This document shows, piece by piece, positions 1 to 9,868 of a stretch of DNA of 60,443 bases (position 1 is its first letter; each line of letters opens with the position of its first letter). Where the stretch lies: positions 1 to 60,443 of the forward strand of contig CAYGAJ010000001.1 of the NCBI GenBank assembly GCA_964347815.1, in the 5' to 3' direction. The DNA is from an uncultured Gemmatimonadota bacterium (GTDB lineage Bacteria; Gemmatimonadota; Gemmatimonadetes; Palauibacterales; KS3-K002). Both the position numbers and the translations under genes were made by a program. The notes beneath the pieces are model-generated. The model searched no databases. It was not told the origin of the DNA and saw only the letters and a list, made by a program, of their open reading frames with translations.

Positions 1-59
1 ACGAGACGTTCCGGCTCTACATCTCGCCGCTCGACCTCGAGCGCCACATGGAGCTTTAG
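1..59 (+). CDS. 3' end of an upstream CDS (partial, ...ETFRLYISPLDLERHMEL*), product unknown
   Basis: Open frame runs off the left edge and ends at TAG 57-59. That is only 6 nt before the ATG at 66, so it is probably co-transcribed with the two 2TM genes. Confidence 0.3.
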   Translation, partial: ETFRLYISPLDLERHMEL

Positions 60-65
60 GCGCCG

Positions 66-524
66 ATGGCGGCGCTCGAGACTAGCGCGGCGGAGCGCCA
101 CCCATCGCTGCGGGCGGAGATCGAGACGGCGGATCGCATCCTGGTGCCGGCGTTCGAGGATGCGGATCGGAAAGCGCTCGAGTACCAGCGCAAGTTTCGC
201 CGTGCCGAGCTGGCGGTGATCTACGGCAGCGTTCTCGCGGTCGCCTTGGGGCTGGCGGCGAGCGTGACGGGAGCGAACGCCTACAGCTTCGTCGAGCTGG
301 TCCTCACCGCCGGTCTCGGTTCCGTCGCCTTTGTCTCCAAGGGTCTCAAGTGGCAACGTCGCTGGCTACGCAGTCGCTGGCTGGCGGAGACGCTTCGCGG
401 CGAACGCCTGATGTTCATCGGCCAGTTGGGCGACTACGGCAATGCGGAAGACCCCGAGGTCGCGCTGCGGCGCCGTCTGGTCGATATCGAACGGGCGGCC
501 CGGGAGGGACAGAGCGATGGCTGA
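66..524 (+). CDS. SLATT/DUF4231-like two-transmembrane protein (152 aa)
   Basis: Soluble helical N-terminus (KALEYQRKFRR) followed by a hairpin of two hydrophobic helices (AELAVIYGSVLAVALGLAASVTG and FVELVLTAGLGSVAFVSKGL). Then a W/R-rich helix (WQRRWLRSRWLAETLRGE). Architecture recalled as typical of DUF4231/SLATT. Confidence 0.6.
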   Translation: MAALETSAAERHPSLRAEIETADRILVPAFEDADRKALEYQRKFRRAELAVIYGSVLAVALGLAASVTGANAYSFVELVLTAGLGSVAFVSKGLKWQRRWLRSRWLAETLRGERLMFIGQLGDYGNAEDPEVALRRRLVDIERAAREGQSDG

Positions 525-1011
525 GCGCGACCGCGACTTCCTGCGCTTCTACGAACAGGAGCGCGTCGAGGACCAGCTGAAGTACTATCGGCGCCAGGCC
601 GGCTGGCACGGCCGCCGTGACGACACGCTCCTCCTCATCAGCGGGATCCTGATGTTCGTCGCCGCTGTCGCCTCGGGCGTCTCGGCGTCGAACTGGGAGG
701 GGGTGGGGCCAGCGGTTCTCTGGAGCTCGGTGGCGGCGCTGGTGCCGGCGCTCGCCGCCGCCGTCGCCGCGACCCGGGCCCTGTACGAGCACGAGCGCAA
801 CCACCAGCGATTCGAGAACACGTTCCACGATCTCGAATATCTCAGGGCTTACAAGGCGCCGTCGGCGAAGCTGGCCGAGGCGGAGTACCGCACCGCGCTG
901 GAGGAGTACGTGGGCGAGGTCGAGGGCTTGCTCTCGCGCGAGCACCGGCAGTGGGTCGAGGTGATGACCCAGGTGCAGGCCGCCCAGGCGCCGGAGCCGC
1001 CCGGCGGCTAG
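517..1011 (+). CDS. Second SLATT/DUF4231-like two-transmembrane protein (164 aa from ATG 517)
   Basis: Internal ATG at 517 overlaps the upstream stop (ATGGCTGA). QLKYYRRQA helix, then two TM helices (TLLLISGILMFVAAVASGVSA and AVLWSSVAALVPALAAAVAAT), then a helical tail. The 442 start in the ORF track is rejected because its leader is Arg-rich. Confidence 0.6.
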   Translation: MAERDRDFLRFYEQERVEDQLKYYRRQAGWHGRRDDTLLLISGILMFVAAVASGVSASNWEGVGPAVLWSSVAALVPALAAAVAATRALYEHERNHQRFENTFHDLEYLRAYKAPSAKLAEAEYRTALEEYVGEVEGLLSREHRQWVEVMTQVQAAQAPEPPGG

Positions 1012-1023
1012 CCCGGGCGTGGC

Positions 1024-3243
1024 TCAGGACAAGAACCCGCCCAGCACGTCGCGCAGATTCGGGCCCGACCCCCGCAAGCTGTACGGCTGGACCCGCAGTT
1101 TGGCCAGGGCAGGGAACAGCCGGTCCACGGTGTCCTCCTGCCCGACGATCAACGTGTCACGACCCAGGCAGTGGGCGATCCCCAGCTCCAGCGCCACGTT
1201 CGCGTTGAAGCCCGTCAGGTCCACGACCACACGTGATGCCCGGCAAAGCTCGTCCCAGATCGAGCGGATGATCCGCGGATTCTTCACGGCGTCACCGCGG
1301 ACGTAATCGACGCCAGCCGCCTCACAGGCTTTGCGGGTGAGATCCATAACCTCGTCCGACCAGTCCATCCCGAATGGCATCACGTGAAAGCACCGGCGCG
1401 CGCCGGGCTCTGGGTAGCTTCCCGGCCAGGCGGGTCGCAGCGGCGCCGGTGCCTCGGGCCCGGAGAAGCCCAGCAGGTTGTCGATGAGATAGCGGACCTT
1501 GAGTGGATCGTCCGCCGCCTCACCGAGCAAGCCGATCGTGTGCTTGGCCTCCCAGCTCGCCTCGTCACCGCCCAGAACGCGCCGGGCATAGGCGATCGTC
1601 TCTGCGATCGACGAGTCGCCGCCGCCTCTCTGCTGCCCGTACAGCGCCTCGTCGAGCGCGTCGCTCAGACGCCGGACATCTTCACCGTCGCCGGCGAGGC
1701 GAACCGGCACGACATCGACGTCGAAGGGAAGGCGGCCCTGGCCAGGCGCGACGATCACGATGGAACGTCCAAGCGCGAGCCCGATACCAAGCTCGTAGCA
1801 TACGGCGGCTAATTCGGTCGCCTCGGCAGAAGTGAAATCGAAAACCGCGACGTTGCACCGGCGCAGTCCGTCCCACCGTTCCTGTGCGTAGTTCCGCTTC
1901 GTGCCGCCCGAAACCAGCTCGAGGCTACGGGCGCCGCACACCTCGGCCGCGAGCCGCTGCACGTCCGTCCCACCCGAGAAAAAGATCGCGTTGGCGTCTT
2001 GTGAGACCGGCGGCGCCGGCCAGATGGGATTGGCCAGGGTGAGGTGATGGCGCATGGCATAGTCGCGCGCGTCGAGGGCGAGCTTGCGAAGCGACTCGCG
2101 CTCGAGCGCGATGACCGCGTCGTCGTCGGCGCCGGCCTGGCGCAGGCTCGTTCCGGCTTGGGCCACGCGGACGAACAGGTTCTCCACGGTCTTGTGCTCG
2201 TCCTCCGCCTTGTGCGCGCGTCCCCCCTCGATGAATAGGAAGCGCTTGACGCCGGCCAAGAGCCGATCGACCCGCTCGGCCCGCGAGCCGCCCGGTGGCG
2301 CTTCACCCTCGTACGTCGGCCGGTCCACCGCGGTCGTCATGCGGCCCATCAGCTCCCGCACGCGCGCGACTCTGCTCATCATATCAGAGAGGTCGTCGGG
2401 TTTCTCCTTCATGACCTCTCCCAACTCCTCGAGGATCGGCTCCAGCGCCTCCTTGCGCTCCGGCGTGAACTCCCCGGCCCGGACCTTCTCGTTGAACAGC
2501 TTGAGCAACATCTCGTAGCCGGCCGTCAGCTCGTTCGATTCGGTCGGGGGAGCGGTGTCCTCGATCTCCATCGATTCCGGTCGCAGGATATCCGATTCGG
2601 CGGTCGTCTCTTCTTCGTCCGGCTCTGATATGCCCAGGCCCGTCGACCCTTCGAGCAGCTCGCGCACGGCCTCGCTGTCCCAATCGCCGGCGGTCACCGG
2701 CAGTGTTTTCGCGTAGCTCGTCAGGCCTCGAAAGGCGCGCTGGACGCTGGCCCGCTCCAGCGTCGCGTCGATGGCCGCGTCGAGCTGGCTGGCCTGGGGC
2801 TCCCCGATAAGTTGGCGGATGACGGCGTTTGCGGGGCCCAGGTCCAGCGGCAAGAGCGGGCGGCCCGTCCAGAGCCGGTAGGAATCCGAGATCGATTGCA
2901 GAAGCCGTTGCGCGAAATACGCATCGTCCATCAGGCCGATCAGCCCGAAGTGATCGAAGATGATATCGAGCGGCGAGACGAAGTACTGCTGGGCCGCCTC
3001 GAGAATCGGCATCGCGTAATGCGAGATACCGACCTGGTTGGCGGCGACGGCGCACGCGTCGAGCAGGTCGGGAACGTTCTCGATGTAGTCGCGGATAAAC
3101 CCGACGGTGCCGGCGATCTCCGATGGCGGCGGCCGATGCCCGTGTTGAGCGGCGGCCTGTCGGAGCATCTGCGCGGCGCTGCCCGAGAACTGTTCGTGCG
3201 CGATGGCCCGGGCGATCTGTTGACGGAGTACTTGCGTTTGCAT
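1024..3243 (-). CDS. Multidomain protein (739 aa): N-terminal DUF1232-like module, acidic helical linker, two tandem nucleoside-2-deoxyribosyltransferase/TIR-like domains
   Basis: ATG at 3243. The N-terminal ~170 aa align with the N-terminus of the neighbouring 3259-5235 product. YFVSPLDIIFDHFGLIGLMDDAYF resembles the DUF1232/YkvA signature. Two repeats are present: AIFFSGG...ELAAVCYELGIGLALGRSIVIV (aa ~418-520) and CFHVMPFG...FNANVALELGIAHCLGRDTLIV (aa ~617-725). Confidence 0.75.
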   Translation of the reverse strand: MQTQVLRQQIARAIAHEQFSGSAAQMLRQAAAQHGHRPPPSEIAGTVGFIRDYIENVPDLLDACAVAANQVGISHYAMPILEAAQQYFVSPLDIIFDHFGLIGLMDDAYFAQRLLQSISDSYRLWTGRPLLPLDLGPANAVIRQLIGEPQASQLDAAIDATLERASVQRAFRGLTSYAKTLPVTAGDWDSEAVRELLEGSTGLGISEPDEEETTAESDILRPESMEIEDTAPPTESNELTAGYEMLLKLFNEKVRAGEFTPERKEALEPILEELGEVMKEKPDDLSDMMSRVARVRELMGRMTTAVDRPTYEGEAPPGGSRAERVDRLLAGVKRFLFIEGGRAHKAEDEHKTVENLFVRVAQAGTSLRQAGADDDAVIALERESLRKLALDARDYAMRHHLTLANPIWPAPPVSQDANAIFFSGGTDVQRLAAEVCGARSLELVSGGTKRNYAQERWDGLRRCNVAVFDFTSAEATELAAVCYELGIGLALGRSIVIVAPGQGRLPFDVDVVPVRLAGDGEDVRRLSDALDEALYGQQRGGGDSSIAETIAYARRVLGGDEASWEAKHTIGLLGEAADDPLKVRYLIDNLLGFSGPEAPAPLRPAWPGSYPEPGARRCFHVMPFGMDWSDEVMDLTRKACEAAGVDYVRGDAVKNPRIIRSIWDELCRASRVVVDLTGFNANVALELGIAHCLGRDTLIVGQEDTVDRLFPALAKLRVQPYSLRGSGPNLRDVLGGFLS

Positions 3244-3258
3244 TGTGGGTTGCCGTCT

Positions 3259-5235
3259 CTAGGCTGGCGGTGCCGCCTCGATCAGCTCGAGCTCGGCTCC
3301 GCACGTGAGATGCCGCCTGCCGTTCCAGGTCTCGCCGTGTGTGGCGAATCGCTTGCCGCATTGAGGACAGCGGAGCCACCCATCGGGTCCGACCTCGACT
3401 TTGAGCCGCGGCATCAGATAAACGATCGTGTCGCTGAATTGCAGATCGGCGAGCTGCTCCGGTGGCGGCGGCGCCGGAGGCCCCTCGATGATCACCGGCA
3501 AGATCTCGGGTGGGTTTTCCTCATGGCCGTTCTTCCTCGTGACCGCATAGTCGATCTCGCGCCCAATCCACTCCGAATCACGTGCCGCGCTGGACCAGAA
3601 CAGAAAGAAGACGTCGGAGCGGTCGATGGCGCGATACAGCTCACGCTCCCAACGGTCACCGGGAGCCAGACTCAAGATGTCCTGGAAGAACTCGTATTTG
3701 AGTAGCTTCAACATCTGCACCCGCTTGAGGACCTCGGCTCGATCCTGCGATGCGTAAGAGACAAAGGCGTAGCGAAAGCGCTTTGCGGTTCCGGTTGGCG
3801 TAACCGATGAGTCCTCTGTGACCGCTGCGGGCTTCACCTCGATCTTGAAGTTGATCTTCCCGATGGGATCGCCGTCCTGCGAGATCAAGAGCTTGCCAAT
3901 CAGGGTCAGATTCGGTTCGGACGGTGCCCGGACCCCGAAACTCACCGACGCCGTCCGCCCCCGCCAGCGCAGGTCCTGGACGGTGTCATCGATCGTGGCC
4001 TCGGGAAGCTTCAGCTCGAAGCTGAGAAACGAGCCGCGGCGGATCTCGGTCCACAGCAGGGTGGTGCCGCGCCGACTCGCTTCGGCGTCGAATTCCGCGG
4101 CCATCTCGGCCGCCTCGGCGGCACCTTCGGGCAGGTGCGCGTAGGCCTGTATCAGAAATCGCTGGCTTGGACTTACCTGCGCCGGGGCGAACACGCTGAC
4201 GTCGACTTCGTCAGCCGGAGTGGATCCTCCGGCACCCGGGCCACCGCCGCTGTCTGAGTCGCCGGCGTCCAGCTCGCCGGCGGAGTGGAAAGCGTCGCCT
4301 GCATTCGACAGCGGGAAGAACAGAGCGCCAAGACAGCCGCTTCGGCTCGCGTGTGGCGGCGTCGCTTCCGGTTCTGTTGCGACGGGAGGAAGAGGCTCGC
4401 GTGAGCGCAGCAGGTCGCGCTCAGGCGGCGGCGCTTCCCGACGCAGTCGATCCAGCTCCAGCCGCCGCTGACGCTCGCGCTCGACGGATTCGTCGCTTGC
4501 CGGCGATGGCGCCGCGGCCGCCGGCGGTTCCGCAGCCTCGAGCGGGGGCGGCGCCGCCGAAGTCCGCTCGCCGCTGAGTGTCTCGAACAGGCGGACCGGC
4601 GCCAGACGCGCCTCGCGGTGGCCTCGGATATCGTCCACGCTCCAGACCGGGCCGGTGAGCGCGAGGAGCGCGGGTGGCGGGGCAATGTATTCCAGCTCGG
4701 CGTAGGCGGCGCATATCGTATCGCAGGCCTGCTGCAGCGCCGGCGCCTCCAGCGTGGTCTCGACCGCGGCTTCGATCGACGCCGCCAGCTCGGGTCCAAA
4801 AAGCTCTCGCGCGACAGCGTTCGCCGGGCCGAGGTCCAGCGAGATGAGTCGGCGACCGGTTCGCGCCGCGACGGCGTCGGATAGACGCTGCAGCAGACGA
4901 TAGGCAAAAAACGCCTCGTCGATCAGCTGAAGCAGCGGCTGCTCTTCGACCGCCGTGCCCGGTGGGGCGAAGTTCCGCTCGATCGTCGCCAGGATGGCCG
5001 CGACCTGATCCTCGATCCCGGCCGCTGCGGCCGCCCGCTGGCAGGAGTGCAGCAGAACCGGAATGTGCTGCACGTACGACCGGATGAAGGCAACCGTGCG
5101 CTGGATCTCGGCGTCGCTCAGCCCGAGACCTACGGCACGCGCTCTCTCGGACAAATGCGCGGCGGTCTCGCCCGTACGCTCGTCATGGGCGAGCCCCGCT
5201 TCGATCAGAGCCGCGGTTCTAGCGATCGCAGACAC
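3259..5235 (-). CDS. TIR-domain protein (658 aa): shared N-terminal module, Pro/Ala-rich linker, beta-rich domain, TIR domain, CxxC...C tail
   Basis: GTG start at 5235. TIR signature YAFVSYASQDRAEV...DVFFLFWSSAARDSEWIGREIDYA (aa ~486-605). C-terminal WLRCPQCGKRF...HLTCG looks like a Zn ribbon. It lies 15 nt upstream of the next gene and 30 nt downstream of the previous one. Confidence 0.8.
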   Translation of the reverse strand: MSAIARTAALIEAGLAHDERTGETAAHLSERARAVGLGLSDAEIQRTVAFIRSYVQHIPVLLHSCQRAAAAAGIEDQVAAILATIERNFAPPGTAVEEQPLLQLIDEAFFAYRLLQRLSDAVAARTGRRLISLDLGPANAVARELFGPELAASIEAAVETTLEAPALQQACDTICAAYAELEYIAPPPALLALTGPVWSVDDIRGHREARLAPVRLFETLSGERTSAAPPPLEAAEPPAAAAPSPASDESVERERQRRLELDRLRREAPPPERDLLRSREPLPPVATEPEATPPHASRSGCLGALFFPLSNAGDAFHSAGELDAGDSDSGGGPGAGGSTPADEVDVSVFAPAQVSPSQRFLIQAYAHLPEGAAEAAEMAAEFDAEASRRGTTLLWTEIRRGSFLSFELKLPEATIDDTVQDLRWRGRTASVSFGVRAPSEPNLTLIGKLLISQDGDPIGKINFKIEVKPAAVTEDSSVTPTGTAKRFRYAFVSYASQDRAEVLKRVQMLKLLKYEFFQDILSLAPGDRWERELYRAIDRSDVFFLFWSSAARDSEWIGREIDYAVTRKNGHEENPPEILPVIIEGPPAPPPPEQLADLQFSDTIVYLMPRLKVEVGPDGWLRCPQCGKRFATHGETWNGRRHLTCGAELELIEAAPPA

Positions 5236-5265
5236 GTCAGTGTTCCAGGCGATTCCGTGAGGGGC

Positions 5266-6660
5266 CTAGTCGGCTGCAGAACCGCGCAGATCGCGCTCGA
5301 TGTCGTCCGCCCAGTCCACGGTTTCACCTCGTTTCTGGCGGGCGTTGCGAATCAACTCCAGGTTACCGGCGGTCGATTTCATCTGCCAGCCGTGAGGCGA
5401 CTCCGCGAGTGCTTTGTCTGTCGCCTTTTCGGCGGCCTCACGGTCGTTCGCCAGGACCGCCAGTTCGAGAAGCGTCGCGTAATCCCAGTAGTCTGGTTCG
5501 CCGGTGGCCACGCGTCGCTCCGTGCTGTAAGCGACGACAGGGAGAATCTTTTCGCGCCGGGGGTCTGGCGGGTCTCGAATCTCCATCAGCGTGACCGCGT
5601 TGATGCCGGGATAGGCGTCGCGCCAATCCGCCTCGAAGCCGCGAACATAGGCGTCGATCGCCTTGTCCAGGAAGCCGCGGGCGAGACGCCCCTCGCCCGC
5701 CTCCAGCGCCGCCTTCCACCGGTCCTTGTAGACGCGACCGAGCAGACCGTAAGTTTCGCTGCTGGGCCCGCGCCGCTCGAGTAGCTTCAGCAGCACGCGC
5801 TCGGCTTCCTCGCCACGGCCGGCGCGATTGAGCGCGAAGGCCAGCTGCTCCTGAACCATCACGGTCTCCGCCAGCGGCGCGGACATCTCGTCGACGAGGG
5901 CGATCATCTCCTCCCAACCCTCGACGTCGCGATATGAGAGAAACAGATCGATCACGACGCCGGCCTCCGTGTCGCTGATCGTCCCCAGCGTCTTTTGGAC
6001 GGCCTGTAGCTCCTTGGGGCCCGACAGCTCCTTCCTCTTTTCCTCGTTGATCTCCTTTTTCTCCCGATCGAGCGTCTCCTTGTCTTTCTTCTTGGCCACG
6101 GCCAGCCGCTCCTTCGCTTCGCTCGAGTAGCGAACGCGATCGCGGAACACGTCGGTCCTGAGACGCGCGATGTCCGGCGGCTTCAGACCGTCAAGCAGCT
6201 GGAACAGCGGGCTGTCGGTTACCGCCTGTCGCGCATCACGCAGCTTTCCGGCCAAGGCCTTGCGAGTCTCGTCCACGTCGGCCGGCGTGCCGGTGGCGGT
6301 GAGCCGGTAGGGAAGGGCGCGCAGAGGCGCCACGTCGAACGGCAGCCGCGTGTTCTCCGAGAAGATGAGCACCGTGCTCCAGGGGCGGGCGGTGTGGCGA
6401 ACCCCCAGCTCGTAGAAGACGTTGGCGTTCGCCGTCGTCAAATCCGCCACCGCGTACTCGCACAGCAACAGCCGCTCGAACATCGCCTGATGGATGACGC
6501 CGCCGACAATCTCTTCGTCGGCGCGTACCGCCTCCAGATCGGCGTCCTCAATGGCCAGCCGGATCAAATCGCGATAAACGGCATCGAAGTCGATGAGCGA
6601 GCCGGCGGGATCAGGCTTCTTGCCGAACGGCATGAGGACGAAGCAGAGCGGGCGGGTCAC
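5266..6660 (-). CDS. Deoxyribosyltransferase/TIR-like N-terminal domain fused to a DUF4071 (TRAFs-binding-type) TPR-like domain (464 aa)
   Basis: GTG at 6660 lies 7 nt after GAGG and yields MTRPLCFVLMPFGKK...TTANANVFYELGVRHTARPWSTVLIF. A Lys/Glu-rich coil follows (KKKDKETLDREKKEINEEKRKE). The C-terminus YGLLGRVYKDRW...DAYPGINAVTL is recalled as DUF4071-like. The 742-aa ORF-track version is rejected because its 5' part is low-complexity and overlaps the TetR gene. Confidence 0.75.
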   Translation of the reverse strand: MTRPLCFVLMPFGKKPDPAGSLIDFDAVYRDLIRLAIEDADLEAVRADEEIVGGVIHQAMFERLLLCEYAVADLTTANANVFYELGVRHTARPWSTVLIFSENTRLPFDVAPLRALPYRLTATGTPADVDETRKALAGKLRDARQAVTDSPLFQLLDGLKPPDIARLRTDVFRDRVRYSSEAKERLAVAKKKDKETLDREKKEINEEKRKELSGPKELQAVQKTLGTISDTEAGVVIDLFLSYRDVEGWEEMIALVDEMSAPLAETVMVQEQLAFALNRAGRGEEAERVLLKLLERRGPSSETYGLLGRVYKDRWKAALEAGEGRLARGFLDKAIDAYVRGFEADWRDAYPGINAVTLMEIRDPPDPRREKILPVVAYSTERRVATGEPDYWDYATLLELAVLANDREAAEKATDKALAESPHGWQMKSTAGNLELIRNARQKRGETVDWADDIERDLRGSAAD

Positions 6661-6852: not shown

Positions 6853-7488
6853 GTGGGAATCAAACATACGTATGAAGAAACGCCCCCTACCGCGGCCGCT
6901 CTCACCGCCGCCGCACTCGAGCTTTTCGCCCGACACGGCTACGACGGCGCCTCCGTACGCGCCATCACCGCCCGCGCCGGCGCCAACCTGGGCGCCATCA
7001 CCTACCACTTCGGCTCCAAGCAGGCGCTCTACGAGGCCGTGTTCGCCCAGGCGGCCGGCCCGTCCAACCAGCGGCTGGCCGAGGCGGCGGCCCAACCGGG
7101 ACCGGCGCTCGCGCGGATCGAGGCCGTGGTGCGCGCCTTCTTCGGTTACCTGGAAGAGAACCCCGCCCTGCCGCAGCTGATGATGCAGCAGCTCGCCAGC
7201 TCGCGTCCGATGCCCGATTCCGCGCTCCGCACGATTCGAGGGAACCTCGAGATCTTGAGCTCGCTCATCCGCGAGGGTCAGGAGGAGGGGTCGATCCGAG
7301 CGGGTGACCCGCGGCTGATGGCGCTCAGCGTCGGAGCGCAGCCGATCTGGCTCACCATGGCGCGGCGAGCGCTGCACGCGGGCGCCGCGATCGACCAGAC
7401 GGATCCGGAGACGCGATCCCGTTTGGTGGAGAGCGTCGTGAGCTTCGTGCGGGCCGGTCTGGCGCGGCATGAGGAGCAACAGGAATGA
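6853..7488 (+). CDS. TetR/AcrR-family transcriptional regulator
   Basis: N-terminal HTH LELFARHGYDGASVRAITARAGANLGAITYHFGSKQALY. The stop overlaps the next start (ATGA). Confidence 0.9.
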   Translation: MGIKHTYEETPPTAAALTAAALELFARHGYDGASVRAITARAGANLGAITYHFGSKQALYEAVFAQAAGPSNQRLAEAAAQPGPALARIEAVVRAFFGYLEENPALPQLMMQQLASSRPMPDSALRTIRGNLEILSSLIREGQEEGSIRAGDPRLMALSVGAQPIWLTMARRALHAGAAIDQTDPETRSRLVESVVSFVRAGLARHEEQQE

Positions 7489-8867
7489 GATCACGAGTTC
7501 TTTTGACGAAGATCGTCAACGTCGGCGTGCTGGCCGCATTCGGCATGATGGGCGCGGCGCGATCGCTCGAGGCGCAAGATGACTTGGCAGGTCGCCGCCT
7601 TACCCTCGCCGAAGCCATCGCCCGGGCGCAGGAGACGTATCCCAGCCTTCTTTCGGCCCGGGCCGGTGAGGAGGCGGCGGCCGCCGCGGTGGGGGAGGCG
7701 ACGGCGGTCCGCTGGCCGAGCCTCAGCACGGGCGTATCGCTGACGAGATTCGAGGAGCCGATGCTCGTGGCGCCGTTGCACCGCTTCGACATCACTCAAC
7801 GTCCGGAGTTCGATGAGACGCTGATCCGCGGGGACGTGACGCTTGCCTGGACGCTGTTCGATGGCGGCGCGCGGGGCGCCCGAATCGGCGGTGCCCGGGC
7901 CGAGGCCGCCGGCTCGGTCGCGGGCCGGCGGAGCGCCGAGATGGATCTCATCGCTCGGGTCACCCGGGCGTACCTGGAGGTGCTCACGGCGCGCGGTGTT
8001 CTGGCGGCGCAGGATCGGCGCATCGTGGCGTTGGCAGCCGAGCGCCGGCGCGTCGAGGACCTTCTTGCCCAGGGGCGTGCTGCCCGGGTGGAGCTGTTGC
8101 GCGTAGACGCCGCGCTCGCGGTCGCCGAGGCGGAGCGGGTCGAGACCGGGGCGCGTCTGGATCTAGCGGAGCGCGATCTGGCGCGTCTGATCGGAGTGTC
8201 GCTCGAAGAAGCCCAGAGCTTCGCGCTGCTGCCCTTGCGCTTGGTGGACCCGGACGCGGAAACAGAGCGAGAAGCGCTGCTCGCCCGAGGCCGGACGGCC
8301 AGCCCCGAGCTGGAACGGGCGCGGCAGCTGGTGCTGGCCGCCGAGGCGGGGAGCCGTCTGGCCCGGGCCGGCTGGCTGCCGCGGTTGGATCTCGTCGGCT
8401 CCTATCTCGGGTTCGGCAGCACGGCGGGAGGTGGCGGTGCGATGGAGTGGCAAGCCGGGGTCAGCCTCTCGTATCCGCTGTTCACGGGCGGTGCGCGGCT
8501 CAGCGCCGTTGGCGCGGCGCGGGCTCGAGAGCGGCGGGCCGACGAAGAGTTACGGCTCGCGCAGCTGAGAGTCGAGGAGGCGGTCGACGTGGCGTTGAAC
8601 GCGGAGCGCGAAGCGCGCGCGCTGGTCGAGGCGGTGTCGCGGGCGGTCGAGCACCAGGCGGAGGTCGTGCGGATCGAGAACCTGTTGCTGGAAGCTGGGG
8701 CCGGGACGCAGACGGACTATCTCAGTTCGGAGGCGGAGCTATTGCGGGTGAGGTCGGCGCTGATCGAAGCACGGCACCGGCATATCGCCGCCCGGGTCGA
8801 GCTGGTCCGCGTCGTCGGTGTGCTCGATACGGCCTGGCTCACTGAGAACCTGGAGATCGCGCGATGA
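7485..8867 (+). CDS. TolC-family outer-membrane efflux protein
   Basis: Signal-like N-terminus and two long coiled-coil/beta repeats typical of outer-membrane factor proteins (LTLAEAIARAQETYPSLLSARA...). Translationally coupled on both sides. Confidence 0.85.
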   Translation: MRSRVLLTKIVNVGVLAAFGMMGAARSLEAQDDLAGRRLTLAEAIARAQETYPSLLSARAGEEAAAAAVGEATAVRWPSLSTGVSLTRFEEPMLVAPLHRFDITQRPEFDETLIRGDVTLAWTLFDGGARGARIGGARAEAAGSVAGRRSAEMDLIARVTRAYLEVLTARGVLAAQDRRIVALAAERRRVEDLLAQGRAARVELLRVDAALAVAEAERVETGARLDLAERDLARLIGVSLEEAQSFALLPLRLVDPDAETEREALLARGRTASPELERARQLVLAAEAGSRLARAGWLPRLDLVGSYLGFGSTAGGGGAMEWQAGVSLSYPLFTGGARLSAVGAARARERRADEELRLAQLRVEEAVDVALNAEREARALVEAVSRAVEHQAEVVRIENLLLEAGAGTQTDYLSSEAELLRVRSALIEARHRHIAARVELVRVVGVLDTAWLTENLEIAR

Positions 8868-9868
8868 AGAACATCCGACGCGTCGCCATCATCATCGTCG
8901 TCGTCGTTGCCGTCGCCGGGACGGCGATCACGCTCGCGCTGCTGCGCTCCGACGGCGCGACGGCGATCGAAGCTTCAGGCACCGTCGAGGCGACCGAAGC
9001 CGACCTCGGGTTTCAGGTGCCGGGTCGCATAGAGAAGATCGCCGTTCGCGAAGGCGACAGGGTGGAGAGCGGGGCCGAGCTGGCCTGGCTCGATCGCGCC
9101 GAGCTGCTCGCCCGGCGCCGGGCCGCCCAGGCGCAGGTGGACGCCGCTCGTGCTTTGTTGGCTGAGCTAGAACGGGGCTTCCGGCCGGAGGAAGTGGCTC
9201 AGGGACGCGCAGCGCTCCGTGCCGCCGAGCAACGTCTGAGCGACGCGCGGCGCGACGTCGAGCGGACGAGGAGCCTGTTCGATGGGGGTGCGGTGAGCCG
9301 CGAGCTTCTGGACAAGCACGAGACGGCGCTCGAGGTCGCCATGGCCGAGTACCAGCGTGCCGAGGAGGCGTTGCAGATCCTGCGGACCGGACCGCGGCAG
9401 GAGCGGATCGCGGCTCAACGCGCAGCCCTGGCCCAGGCCGAGGCGACGGAGGCGCAGATCGAGGCCGCCCTCACCTACGCGGTCGTCCGGGCGCCCTTCG
9501 TCGGCGTCGTCAGCCTGCGCCACCGCGAGCCCGGCGAGAGCGTTCAGGCGGGCGCGCCGGTCGTTACGGTGATGAACCCGGACGATCGCTGGATCCGCAT
9601 CTACGTCCGCGAGGATGAGGTGGGGAGGCTGACGCTCGGTCAGAGGGCGGAGATCACGGCGGACGCCGACCCCGAGCGCGTCTATGAAGGTCAGGTCGTC
9701 TTTATCGCCAGCGAGGCGGAGTTCACGCCGCGCAACGTCCAGACCACGGAGGAGCGGGTGAAGCTGGTGTACCGGGTGAAGGTGCAGATCACGGGCGACC
9801 CCGGTTTCGACTTGAAGCCGGGTCTGGCGGCCGACGTGCGGCTGAGCGTCGGGTCGCGCGACTCTTAG
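8864..9868 (+). CDS. HlyD-family membrane fusion protein (YbhG-like)
   Basis: N-terminal TM helix, lipoyl-like hairpin, coiled coil, and C-terminal TPRNVQTTEERVKLVYRVKV motif typical of YbhG/HlyD_D23 proteins. Confidence 0.9.
   Translation: MKNIRRVAIIIVVVVAVAGTAITLALLRSDGATAIEASGTVEATEADLGFQVPGRIEKIAVREGDRVESGAELAWLDRAELLARRRAAQAQVDAARALLAELERGFRPEEVAQGRAALRAAEQRLSDARRDVERTRSLFDGGAVSRELLDKHETALEVAMAEYQRAEEALQILRTGPRQERIAAQRAALAQAEATEAQIEAALTYAVVRAPFVGVVSLRHREPGESVQAGAPVVTVMNPDDRWIRIYVREDEVGRLTLGQRAEITADADPERVYEGQVVFIASEAEFTPRNVQTTEERVKLVYRVKVQITGDPGFDLKPGLAADVRLSVGSRDS

Follow-up and report, generated by a model that had tools for sequence, protein, structure and literature searches.

The DNA considered here is a stretch of 60,443 nucleotides (nt) from an uncultured Gemmatimonadota bacterium (Palauibacterales, KS3-K002; contig CAYGAJ010000001.1, positions 1 to 60,443, forward strand), the whole of which is referred to below as the window. 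The source genome is 81%-complete and is divided into 347 contigs, and the window begins at the end of one of them. Just downstream of the remnant of a glutamine synthetase gene, the window carries two short genes, A and B, which encode membrane proteins of the SLATT superfamily and are the subject of this analysis. The features of this part of the window are as follows.

1-59, plus strand: 3' end of glnA (glutamine synthetase), with the C-terminus ETFRLYISPLDLERHMEL / FRLYISPLDLERHMEL at the stop matched to relatives
66-524, plus strand: SLATT subunit A, DUF4231/SLATT_3 type, 152 amino acids (aa), identified by Pfam, hydropathy, and AlphaFold2
502-509, plus strand: Shine-Dalgarno-like GGGAGGGA, which falls within the 3' end of A and precedes the start of B by 7 nt, read from the sequence
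517-524, no strand assigned: overlap of the stop of A and the start of B, ATGGCTGA, 8 nt, with the geometry of translational coupling, read from the sequence
517-1011, plus strand: SLATT subunit B, SLATT_1 type, 164 aa, identified by Pfam, NCBIfam, alignment, and hydropathy

The original prediction, which was made from the sequence letters, placed two open reading frames (ORFs) with an overlapping stop and start at this point, and both were recovered at 66-524 and 517-1011, with the 8-nt overlap built from the ATG of B (517-519) and the TGA of A (522-524). The two genes are kept together, with the same overlap, in the close and mid-range relatives, all of which belong to the Gemmatimonadota. 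Identity in the relatives ranges from 43-92% in A and from 50-87% in B, and this conservation indicates that the ORF pair is more than a product of chance. A search of the sequence around the pair revealed nothing that resembled a promoter or a terminator.

Both A and B belong to the SLATT superfamily, as judged from curated profile thresholds, which they exceed. The A protein matches the Pfam families DUF4231 (37.5 bits, cut-off 24.7) and SLATT_3 (30.2 bits, cut-off 26.3), while B matches SLATT_1 in both Pfam (54.8 bits, cut-off 26.3) and NCBIfam (73.3 bits, cut-off 41). The superfamily, which includes Pfam SLATT_1-6 and DUF4231, was reportedly defined by Burroughs and colleagues in 2015. The apolar segments recognized by hydropathy lie at approximately 49-70 (transmembrane helix 1, TM1) and 72-92 (TM2) in A, and at approximately 37-58 (TM1) and 62-86 (TM2) in B. 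In both proteins, lysine and arginine are absent from the loop between TM1 and TM2, and are abundant in the flanks on both sides, so that hairpins with both termini in the cytoplasm (N-in/C-in) are predicted for A and B alike. The identity with SLATT/DUF4231 proposed in the original prediction is thus supported by profile matches and by predicted transmembrane hairpins.

The shared plan of a basic N-terminal patch, a two-helix hairpin, and a helical tail, which was also part of that prediction, agrees with the hydropathy of the two proteins and with the AlphaFold2 model of A, and the patches themselves lie at residues 39-46 of A (EYQRKFRR) and 20-28 of B (QLKYYRRQA). The A protein is laid out as a cytoplasmic N-helix, TM1, TM2, and then two further helices, a conserved juxtamembrane one (LKWQRRWLRSRWLAETLRGER) and a C-terminal one, with residues Q41, R104, and E108 invariant in an alignment of 40 sequences. 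The AlphaFold2 model of A, which was based on a 40-sequence alignment (mean predicted local distance difference test score, pLDDT, 86.9; predicted template modelling score, pTM, 0.71), has helices at 13-68, 72-118, and 130-150, in which a long helix runs from the cytoplasm into TM1, and is followed by a three-residue turn, a second long helix that comprises TM2 and the conserved, tryptophan- and arginine-rich juxtamembrane stretch, and the C-terminal helix. In B, an N-helix with the motif RVEDQLxYY is followed by TM1, TM2, and C-terminal helices that end in the conserved YVxEVExLLSREHRQW. Hydropathy, the positive-inside pattern, and the models of A and of a fused A-B homologue all return a two-helix hairpin flanked by cytoplasmic helices, and the conserved polar residues of the unit are all located on these cytoplasmic helices. 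Permeabilization of the membrane on activation is predicted for SLATT proteins, and may apply to A and B by analogy.

The two proteins are barely similar to one another, as had been proposed, given that no similarity between them is detectable by BLASTP (E 8.8) or by hhalign of the two family alignments (7.6% probability). Remote homology of A and B as established by direct comparison was therefore rejected, and their kinship is drawn solely from the cross-matches to Pfam and NCBIfam. In the search for solved structures, Foldseek returned nothing below E 0.1 in the PDB for the model of the fused homologue, and sequence profiles compared with the PDB returned nothing.

A first line of evidence that A and B may work as one unit comes from a scan of distant lineages. 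The alignment of 50 stand-alone B sequences was too diverse for this purpose, and the subgroup that shares the motif EQ[GA]QWGQL was used instead, which means that the 36 loci recovered sample a single SLATT_1 subfamily. These loci span the Acidobacteriota, Chloroflexota, Verrucomicrobiota, Actinomycetota, Bacillota, and Gemmatimonadota. An A-type ORF, recognized at 42-120 bits by a hidden Markov model (HMM) of the A family made here, abuts B in 35 of the 36 loci and is fused to it in the other one, and the order of the genes is always A followed by B. The junctions of the 35 split pairs consist of a 4-nt overlap in 23 cases and an 8-nt overlap in three, with the remainder lying between -29 and +21 nt.

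Fusions of the two types provide a second line of evidence. One fused locus, L029 (Pyrinomonadaceae), encodes a single chain of 338 aa, with DUF4231 at 45.9 bits and SLATT_1 at 88.6 bits, while proteins of approximately 500 aa from the Opitutia and the Gemmatimonadaceae (the L026 type) join a SLOG-like head to SLATT_3 and SLATT_1. The families PF14015 and PF18181 are both present in at least 65 protein clusters. Among 148 SLATT_1 representatives, 80 are of stand-alone size and 39 are of 291-400 aa; in these longer proteins, among the top 150 matches listed, the C-terminal half matches B, and at least 20 of them have an A-type N-terminal half that is recognized by the narrow A-family HMM. The AlphaFold2 model of the fused Pyrinomonadaceae homologue (pLDDT 86.4, pTM 0.81) gives a confident placement of the two modules with respect to one another.

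The two proteins also diverge together. Over 42 pairs, the pairwise p-distances of A and B are correlated at r = 0.90, a value reached in none of 2000 permutations, although this test is inflated by the inclusion of related sequences, and the mean rates of divergence of the two proteins are equal. This pattern fits the co-inheritance of A and B as one unit. Taken together, the pairing, the fusions, the co-divergence, and the fused fold lead, by the Rosetta-stone argument, to the conclusion that A and B would form a single four-helix unit. The co-production and heteromeric complex suggested in the original prediction thus find support in comparative evidence, that is, in the 35 abutting pairs, the fused chains, the pTM of the fused model, and the correlation of distances. 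When 301 genomes of the phylum were sampled, only one had a strong match to the pair, and this sporadic occurrence points to an accessory element, rather than a housekeeping one.

The neighborhoods of the pair in the other lineages were tallied by a Pfam scan of two genes on each side in the 36 loci (137 proteins). The most common families are the LSDAT_prok SLOG (8), TIR_2 (7), TPR-S (6), and MAP3K_TRAF_bd (4), while all others occur three times or less, except for LSDAT_euk and the generic TPR families, which are presumably found on the same proteins. The genomic link of SLATT proteins to the enzymes and sensors of nucleotide signals is thus recovered here, with SLOG, TIR_2, and TPR-S at the head of the tally. 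A SLOG gene is found in 10 loci, mostly immediately upstream and on the same strand. A TIR gene lies beside the pair in L041, L049, L053, L054, L062, and L069, and beside SLOG-A-B fusions in L026, L032, L034, and L035.

Two further loci of the Gemmatimonadota, both outside the syntenic site of the window, carry TIR genes upstream of the pair and in the same direction. In L025, a TIR_2 gene (549 aa) is followed, after a gap of 50 nt, by A and B, whereas L024 has the order TIR-TonB_C, TIR_2, TIR_2-TPR-S, patatin, SLOG-like, peptidoglycan-binding, A, and B. The association of paired SLATT genes with TIR-type genes, which was also anticipated in the original prediction, is borne out both by these two loci and by the tally. 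The operon of L024 is headed by a 450-aa protein (893-2245) with an N-terminal TIR_2 domain (72.8 bits) and a C-terminal TonB domain (58.7 bits). The SLOG-like gene of the same operon (5683-6243) encodes a 186-aa protein with no Pfam match, which is 28% identical (E 5e-6) to the SLOG-like head of the SLOG-SLATT_3-SLATT_1 fusions of approximately 500 aa.

Some side observations were also made in these neighborhoods. In L033, a 666-aa protein of the Verrucomicrobiales (7482-9482) appears to combine a SLATT_1-like region with a C-terminal alpha/beta-hydrolase-like domain, with weak Pfam matches only. In the metagenome-assembled genome (MAG) that carries L029, a SpoVR-like gene with a LAGLIDADG intein (1948-4578) lies just upstream of the fused DUF4231 and SLATT_1 gene. 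A Mut7-C RNase with a Ub-Mut7C domain lies within three genes of A/B in two loci of the Verrucomicrobiota (L044, 8744-9523; L050, 6804-7577).

In the window itself, three genes on the minus strand run head-on toward the pair, with a TetR-efflux operon beyond them.

1024-3243, minus strand: 739-aa protein in which a DUF1232-like head is joined to two NDT/TIR-like modules (Pfam DUF1232, 29.2 bits; PADLOC "Effector/TIR", 26 bits)
3259-5235, minus strand: 658-aa TIR_2 protein with a Zn-ribbon-like C-terminal tail (Pfam TIR_2, 68.4 bits)
5266-6660, minus strand: protein of approximately 464 aa with an NDT/TIR-like N-module and a MAP3K_TRAF_bd/TPR-S region (MAP3K_TRAF_bd, 178.9 bits; TPR-S, 99.8 bits)

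The gene of the 739-aa protein, which also matches Nuc_deoxyrib_tr below the cut-off (24.6 bits), converges on B, with the two stops 12 nt apart. A gene of 739 or 740 aa is found near the pair in L002, L003, L005, L006, and L009, convergent either directly or across variable genes, while two shorter, adjacent minus-strand ORFs with no Pfam match (184 and 565 aa) occupy its position in L008. As a lone query for related loci, this protein returned nothing, and the scan of the phylum recovered only its N-terminal module elsewhere. The 658-aa TIR_2 protein is a candidate signal producer, and TIR_2 is confined within this island to the window and L008, which makes it variable cargo.

The TPR-S protein of approximately 464 aa may serve as a second effector or as a sensor. 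Its N-module has no Pfam match and a weak PADLOC "Effector/TIR" match (31 bits), and resembles the modules of the 739-aa protein, which themselves match Nuc_deoxyrib_tr below the cut-off. Homologues of this protein (58% identity, 507-523 bits) lie directly downstream of A/B in L063, L068, and L069, with a spacing of 8 nt. The hosts are Geodermatophilus, Blastococcus deserti, and a MAG of the Thermoleophilia, and the MAG also carries a convergent TIR_2 gene. The gene of B. deserti (Actinomycetota) spans 6476-7855 of L068, and its counterpart in the window spans 5266-6660. The A/B pairs of these three loci are only 22-31% identical to that of the window (22-25% in the case of B. deserti), and the presence of the same partner family on two far-diverged A/B lineages is not explained by the shared descent of a single locus. 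The high identity of the TPR-S proteins, compared with the low identity of the A/B pairs, suggests that the modules were exchanged separately.

The stretch between the pair and the TetR-efflux operon (1024-6660 in the window) is a site of variable cargo across L002, L003, L005, L006, and L009. The cargo of L003, L005, and L006 consists of ORFs of 252 and 87 aa (plus one of 385 aa), while the L002 island adds a TPR-S-patatin-TM protein (877 aa) and a TPR-S protein, and that of L009 adds an M1 peptidase; in L002 and L009, TPR-S effectors are present and TIR_2 is not. Three more ORFs with a TIR_2 domain (open frames of 402-556 aa) are found elsewhere in the source genome, on contigs C179, C124, and C148 (L074-L076).

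On the other side of the pair, glnA is a housekeeping gene, and lies outside the proposed system. Its C-terminus in the window matches the 449-aa Gln-synt gene found upstream of the pair in L003, as well as a 59-aa fragment in L008. A sensor or enzyme gene located upstream, beyond the end of the contig, was considered and rejected, given that the gene cut at the start of the window is glnA. The gap between the stop of glnA and the start of A is 6 nt in the window and L008, and approximately 250 nt in L003 (spacer region 9274-9529), L005, and L006. The contigs of the window (1-65) and L008 (1-186) both break within glnA, right upstream of the pair, and the L002 contig also ends right upstream of the pair.

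Several known systems resemble parts of this arrangement. Type VII Thoeris, which was validated in a preprint of December 2025, consists of a TIR protein (ThsB) and a SLATT effector, ThsH, with canonical cyclic ADP-ribose as the signal, in which ThsH was modelled as a homo-hexamer (bioRxiv 10.64898/2025.12.03.692087). As in that system, a SLATT membrane protein lies near a TIR_2 gene, and the predicted logic is the same, with a nucleotide made by the TIR protein leading to a SLATT assembly that breaches the membrane. As for the operon of TIR and SLATT genes, TIR_2, A, and B share one direction in L025, with TIR_2 50 nt upstream, whereas the TIR_2 gene of the window is convergent on the opposite strand. 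A single, homo-oligomeric SLATT effector is also not what is found here: ThsH, which was compared by its description only, is one gene, whereas the window has two diverged SLATT genes, which are always either paired or fused.

The putative Thoeris effectors described as "SLOG and 4TM" come close from another direction. Their 4TM part corresponds to A plus B, the L026-type proteins have the same sequence of SLOG-like head, SLATT_3, and SLATT_1, with TIR alongside, and in L024, a homologue of the SLOG head is encoded as a separate gene in one operon with A and B. In the window, by contrast, the four helices are present as hairpins on two polypeptides, and no SLOG domain is joined to them. The type VIII Thoeris system, validated in the same preprint, pairs TIR with a "CMP hydrolase and TPR" effector, ThsI, and ThsH and ThsI are rarely found in one operon (bioRxiv 10.64898/2025.12.03.692087). 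The product of 5266-6660 has the TPR-S/MAP3K_TRAF_bd sensor region behind an NDT/TIR-like head, a layout that resembles that of ThsI (and of BcTpr, bioRxiv 10.1101/2023.05.26.542521). In the window, as in L063, L068, and L069, A/B is accompanied by this TPR-S protein, comparable to the operons that hold both ThsH and ThsI. This likeness concerns a neighboring gene and not the pair itself, and the "CMP hydrolase" N-module is only putative, with no Pfam match.

Other members of the superfamily, such as the SLATT_5 protein that DRT10 requires for defense (bioRxiv 10.64898/2026.04.29.721553), provide a broader frame. Like the SLATT proteins of DRT10/UG17, where a reverse transcriptase is accompanied by SLATT_5, and the 2TM proteins of CBASS, A and B are two-helix hairpins and predicted nucleotide-responsive pore formers of a superfamily linked to SLOG, SMODS, TIR, and reverse transcriptase genes; those systems have a single SLATT gene each, in contrast with the two of the window. 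The occurrence of SLATT with TIR-type effectors has been recorded (Kaur et al. 2020), and the pairing of SLATT_3/DUF4231 with SLATT_1 may already have been described (Burroughs et al. 2015). The locus of the window is, then, a known kind of system, and what sets it apart is a SLATT output of two diverged genes that behave as an obligate pair, a split form of the "4TM" without the SLOG head.

On the comparative evidence, A and B are probably different subunits that together make up a four-helix SLATT module in the membrane, which would act as the output of a Thoeris-like anti-phage system. Within this reading, a heteromeric, translationally coupled A/B effector is the likely part, while TIR signalling through a nucleotide derived from nicotinamide adenine dinucleotide (NAD), as the exact input, is proposed with less confidence. 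The system may operate as follows. One messenger RNA with the overlapping stop and start would yield A and B in roughly equal amounts, and each protein would insert as an N-in/C-in helical hairpin, with A packing against B, as within the natural single-chain fusions. The activating input would then reach the cytoplasmic helices, either as a TIR-made, NAD-derived nucleotide that is bound directly, as proposed for ThsH of type VII, or as a signal relayed by a sensor, which would be SLOG in many loci and may be the NDT-like or TPR-S proteins in the window. The activated A/B units would oligomerize, and the inner membrane would be breached or depolarized, which would, in turn, stop the production of phage (abortive infection).

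A number of observations weigh against this reading. No SLOG, TIR, or TPR-S gene is found within three genes of the pair in 22 of the 36 loci, and in the window itself, the TIR-type genes are convergent with the pair rather than co-operonic, with TIR_2 2.2 kb away, and glnA sits 6 nt 5' of the pair. The original prediction had linked the pair to signalling rather than housekeeping contexts, and this link is supported by the signalling families that head the tally, with glnA as the upstream gene of the window, the convergent orientation of its TIR-type genes, and the loci that lack a signalling gene as caveats. Neither of the two outcomes that the prediction had named as contrary to it was obtained. 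The islands of L003, L005, and L006 lack both TIR_2 and TPR-S, and hold only the pair, the 740-aa protein, and two ORFs of no assigned family (252 and 87 aa). LSDAT_prok SLOG was not found in this 81%-complete genome, and no SLOG domain occurs in A or in B. When the TIR of the window was compared with the Thoeris TIRs listed in Table S1, the matches were weak and uninformative, with none of the typed TIRs close to it, and the "SLOG and 4TM" effectors (Tables S1/S2) provided no defense when tested in Escherichia coli (bioRxiv 10.64898/2025.12.03.692087).

These same islands are the basis of a variant of the proposal, in which the heteromeric A/B pore, together with TPR-S effectors where these are present, would be driven by a nucleotide signal from the NDT-like glycosidase modules, in a system without TIR. 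This variant, which is considered unlikely, draws on the 739-aa protein as the sole constant partner of the pair in this island, on the absence of canonical TIR and TPR-S from L003, L005, and L006, and on the absence of TIR_2 from L002 and L009.

The lack of signalling neighbors in so many loci, where only unrelated-looking genes are found (ProRS, MFS, MacB, and oxidoreductases), also raises the prospect of a self-contained, two-gene membrane module that receives no signalling input. One subunit would then check the other, in the manner of a holin and antiholin or a toxin and antitoxin, or the pair would serve membrane homeostasis, and the nearness of TIR would reflect the clustering of genes in defense islands or variable regions. 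The fixed position of the pair after glnA would fit such a module, with the genes up to TetR varying around it (M1 peptidase, patatin, the 252- and 87-aa pair, and TIR_2). SLOG, TIR_2, and TPR-S nevertheless lead all other neighbor families by far, many proteins carry SLOG in one chain with A-B, and the sporadic distribution of the pair in the phylum is unlike that of housekeeping genes. The single-chain fusions of A and B also argue against a separately regulated antagonist pair, which leaves this explanation rather improbable.

The constancy of the 739-aa protein can also be taken further, to a pair that works with this protein of one DUF1232 and two NDT-like modules alone, with TIR_2 and TPR-S forming a separate, adjoining system similar to type VIII Thoeris. 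It is this protein that converges on the pair in L002, L003, L005, L006, and L009, while TIR_2 is found only in the window and L008. All of these loci are syntenic from glnA to TetR, however, so that the linkage may be plain vertical inheritance, and the searches recovered the full-length protein in this lineage only. Elsewhere, A/B associates with TIR, SLOG, and TPR-S, including close homologues of the TPR-S gene of the window, and such an exclusive partnership is quite improbable. Finally, fused A-B genes are common elsewhere, but the idea that a single fused 4TM gene was split artificially, by misassembly or a frameshift error, is scarcely credible, given that independent assemblies show A and B divided in the same way, with an overlap of the ATGA type and a separate ribosome-binding site, in L008, L002, L003 (a complete chromosome), L005, and L006, and in 35 loci of other phyla.

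In the nucleotide-signalling immunity of bacteria, SLATT proteins increasingly turn out to be common membrane effectors, as in Thoeris VII, DRT10, and CBASS, and to our knowledge, no SLATT structure exists. The natural single-chain versions of A-B may be usable for structural work. The presence of one TPR-S family on A/B pairs of low identity suggests a shared signal that would link the SLATT and TPR-S effectors. If a large branch of the SLATT proteins does act as an obligate A/B heteromer, whether split or fused, this would explain why tests of single genes may fail, and both genes would need to be cloned together. It would also provide a simple rule for the annotation of the many gene pairs that are recorded as "DUF4231" plus "SLATT domain".

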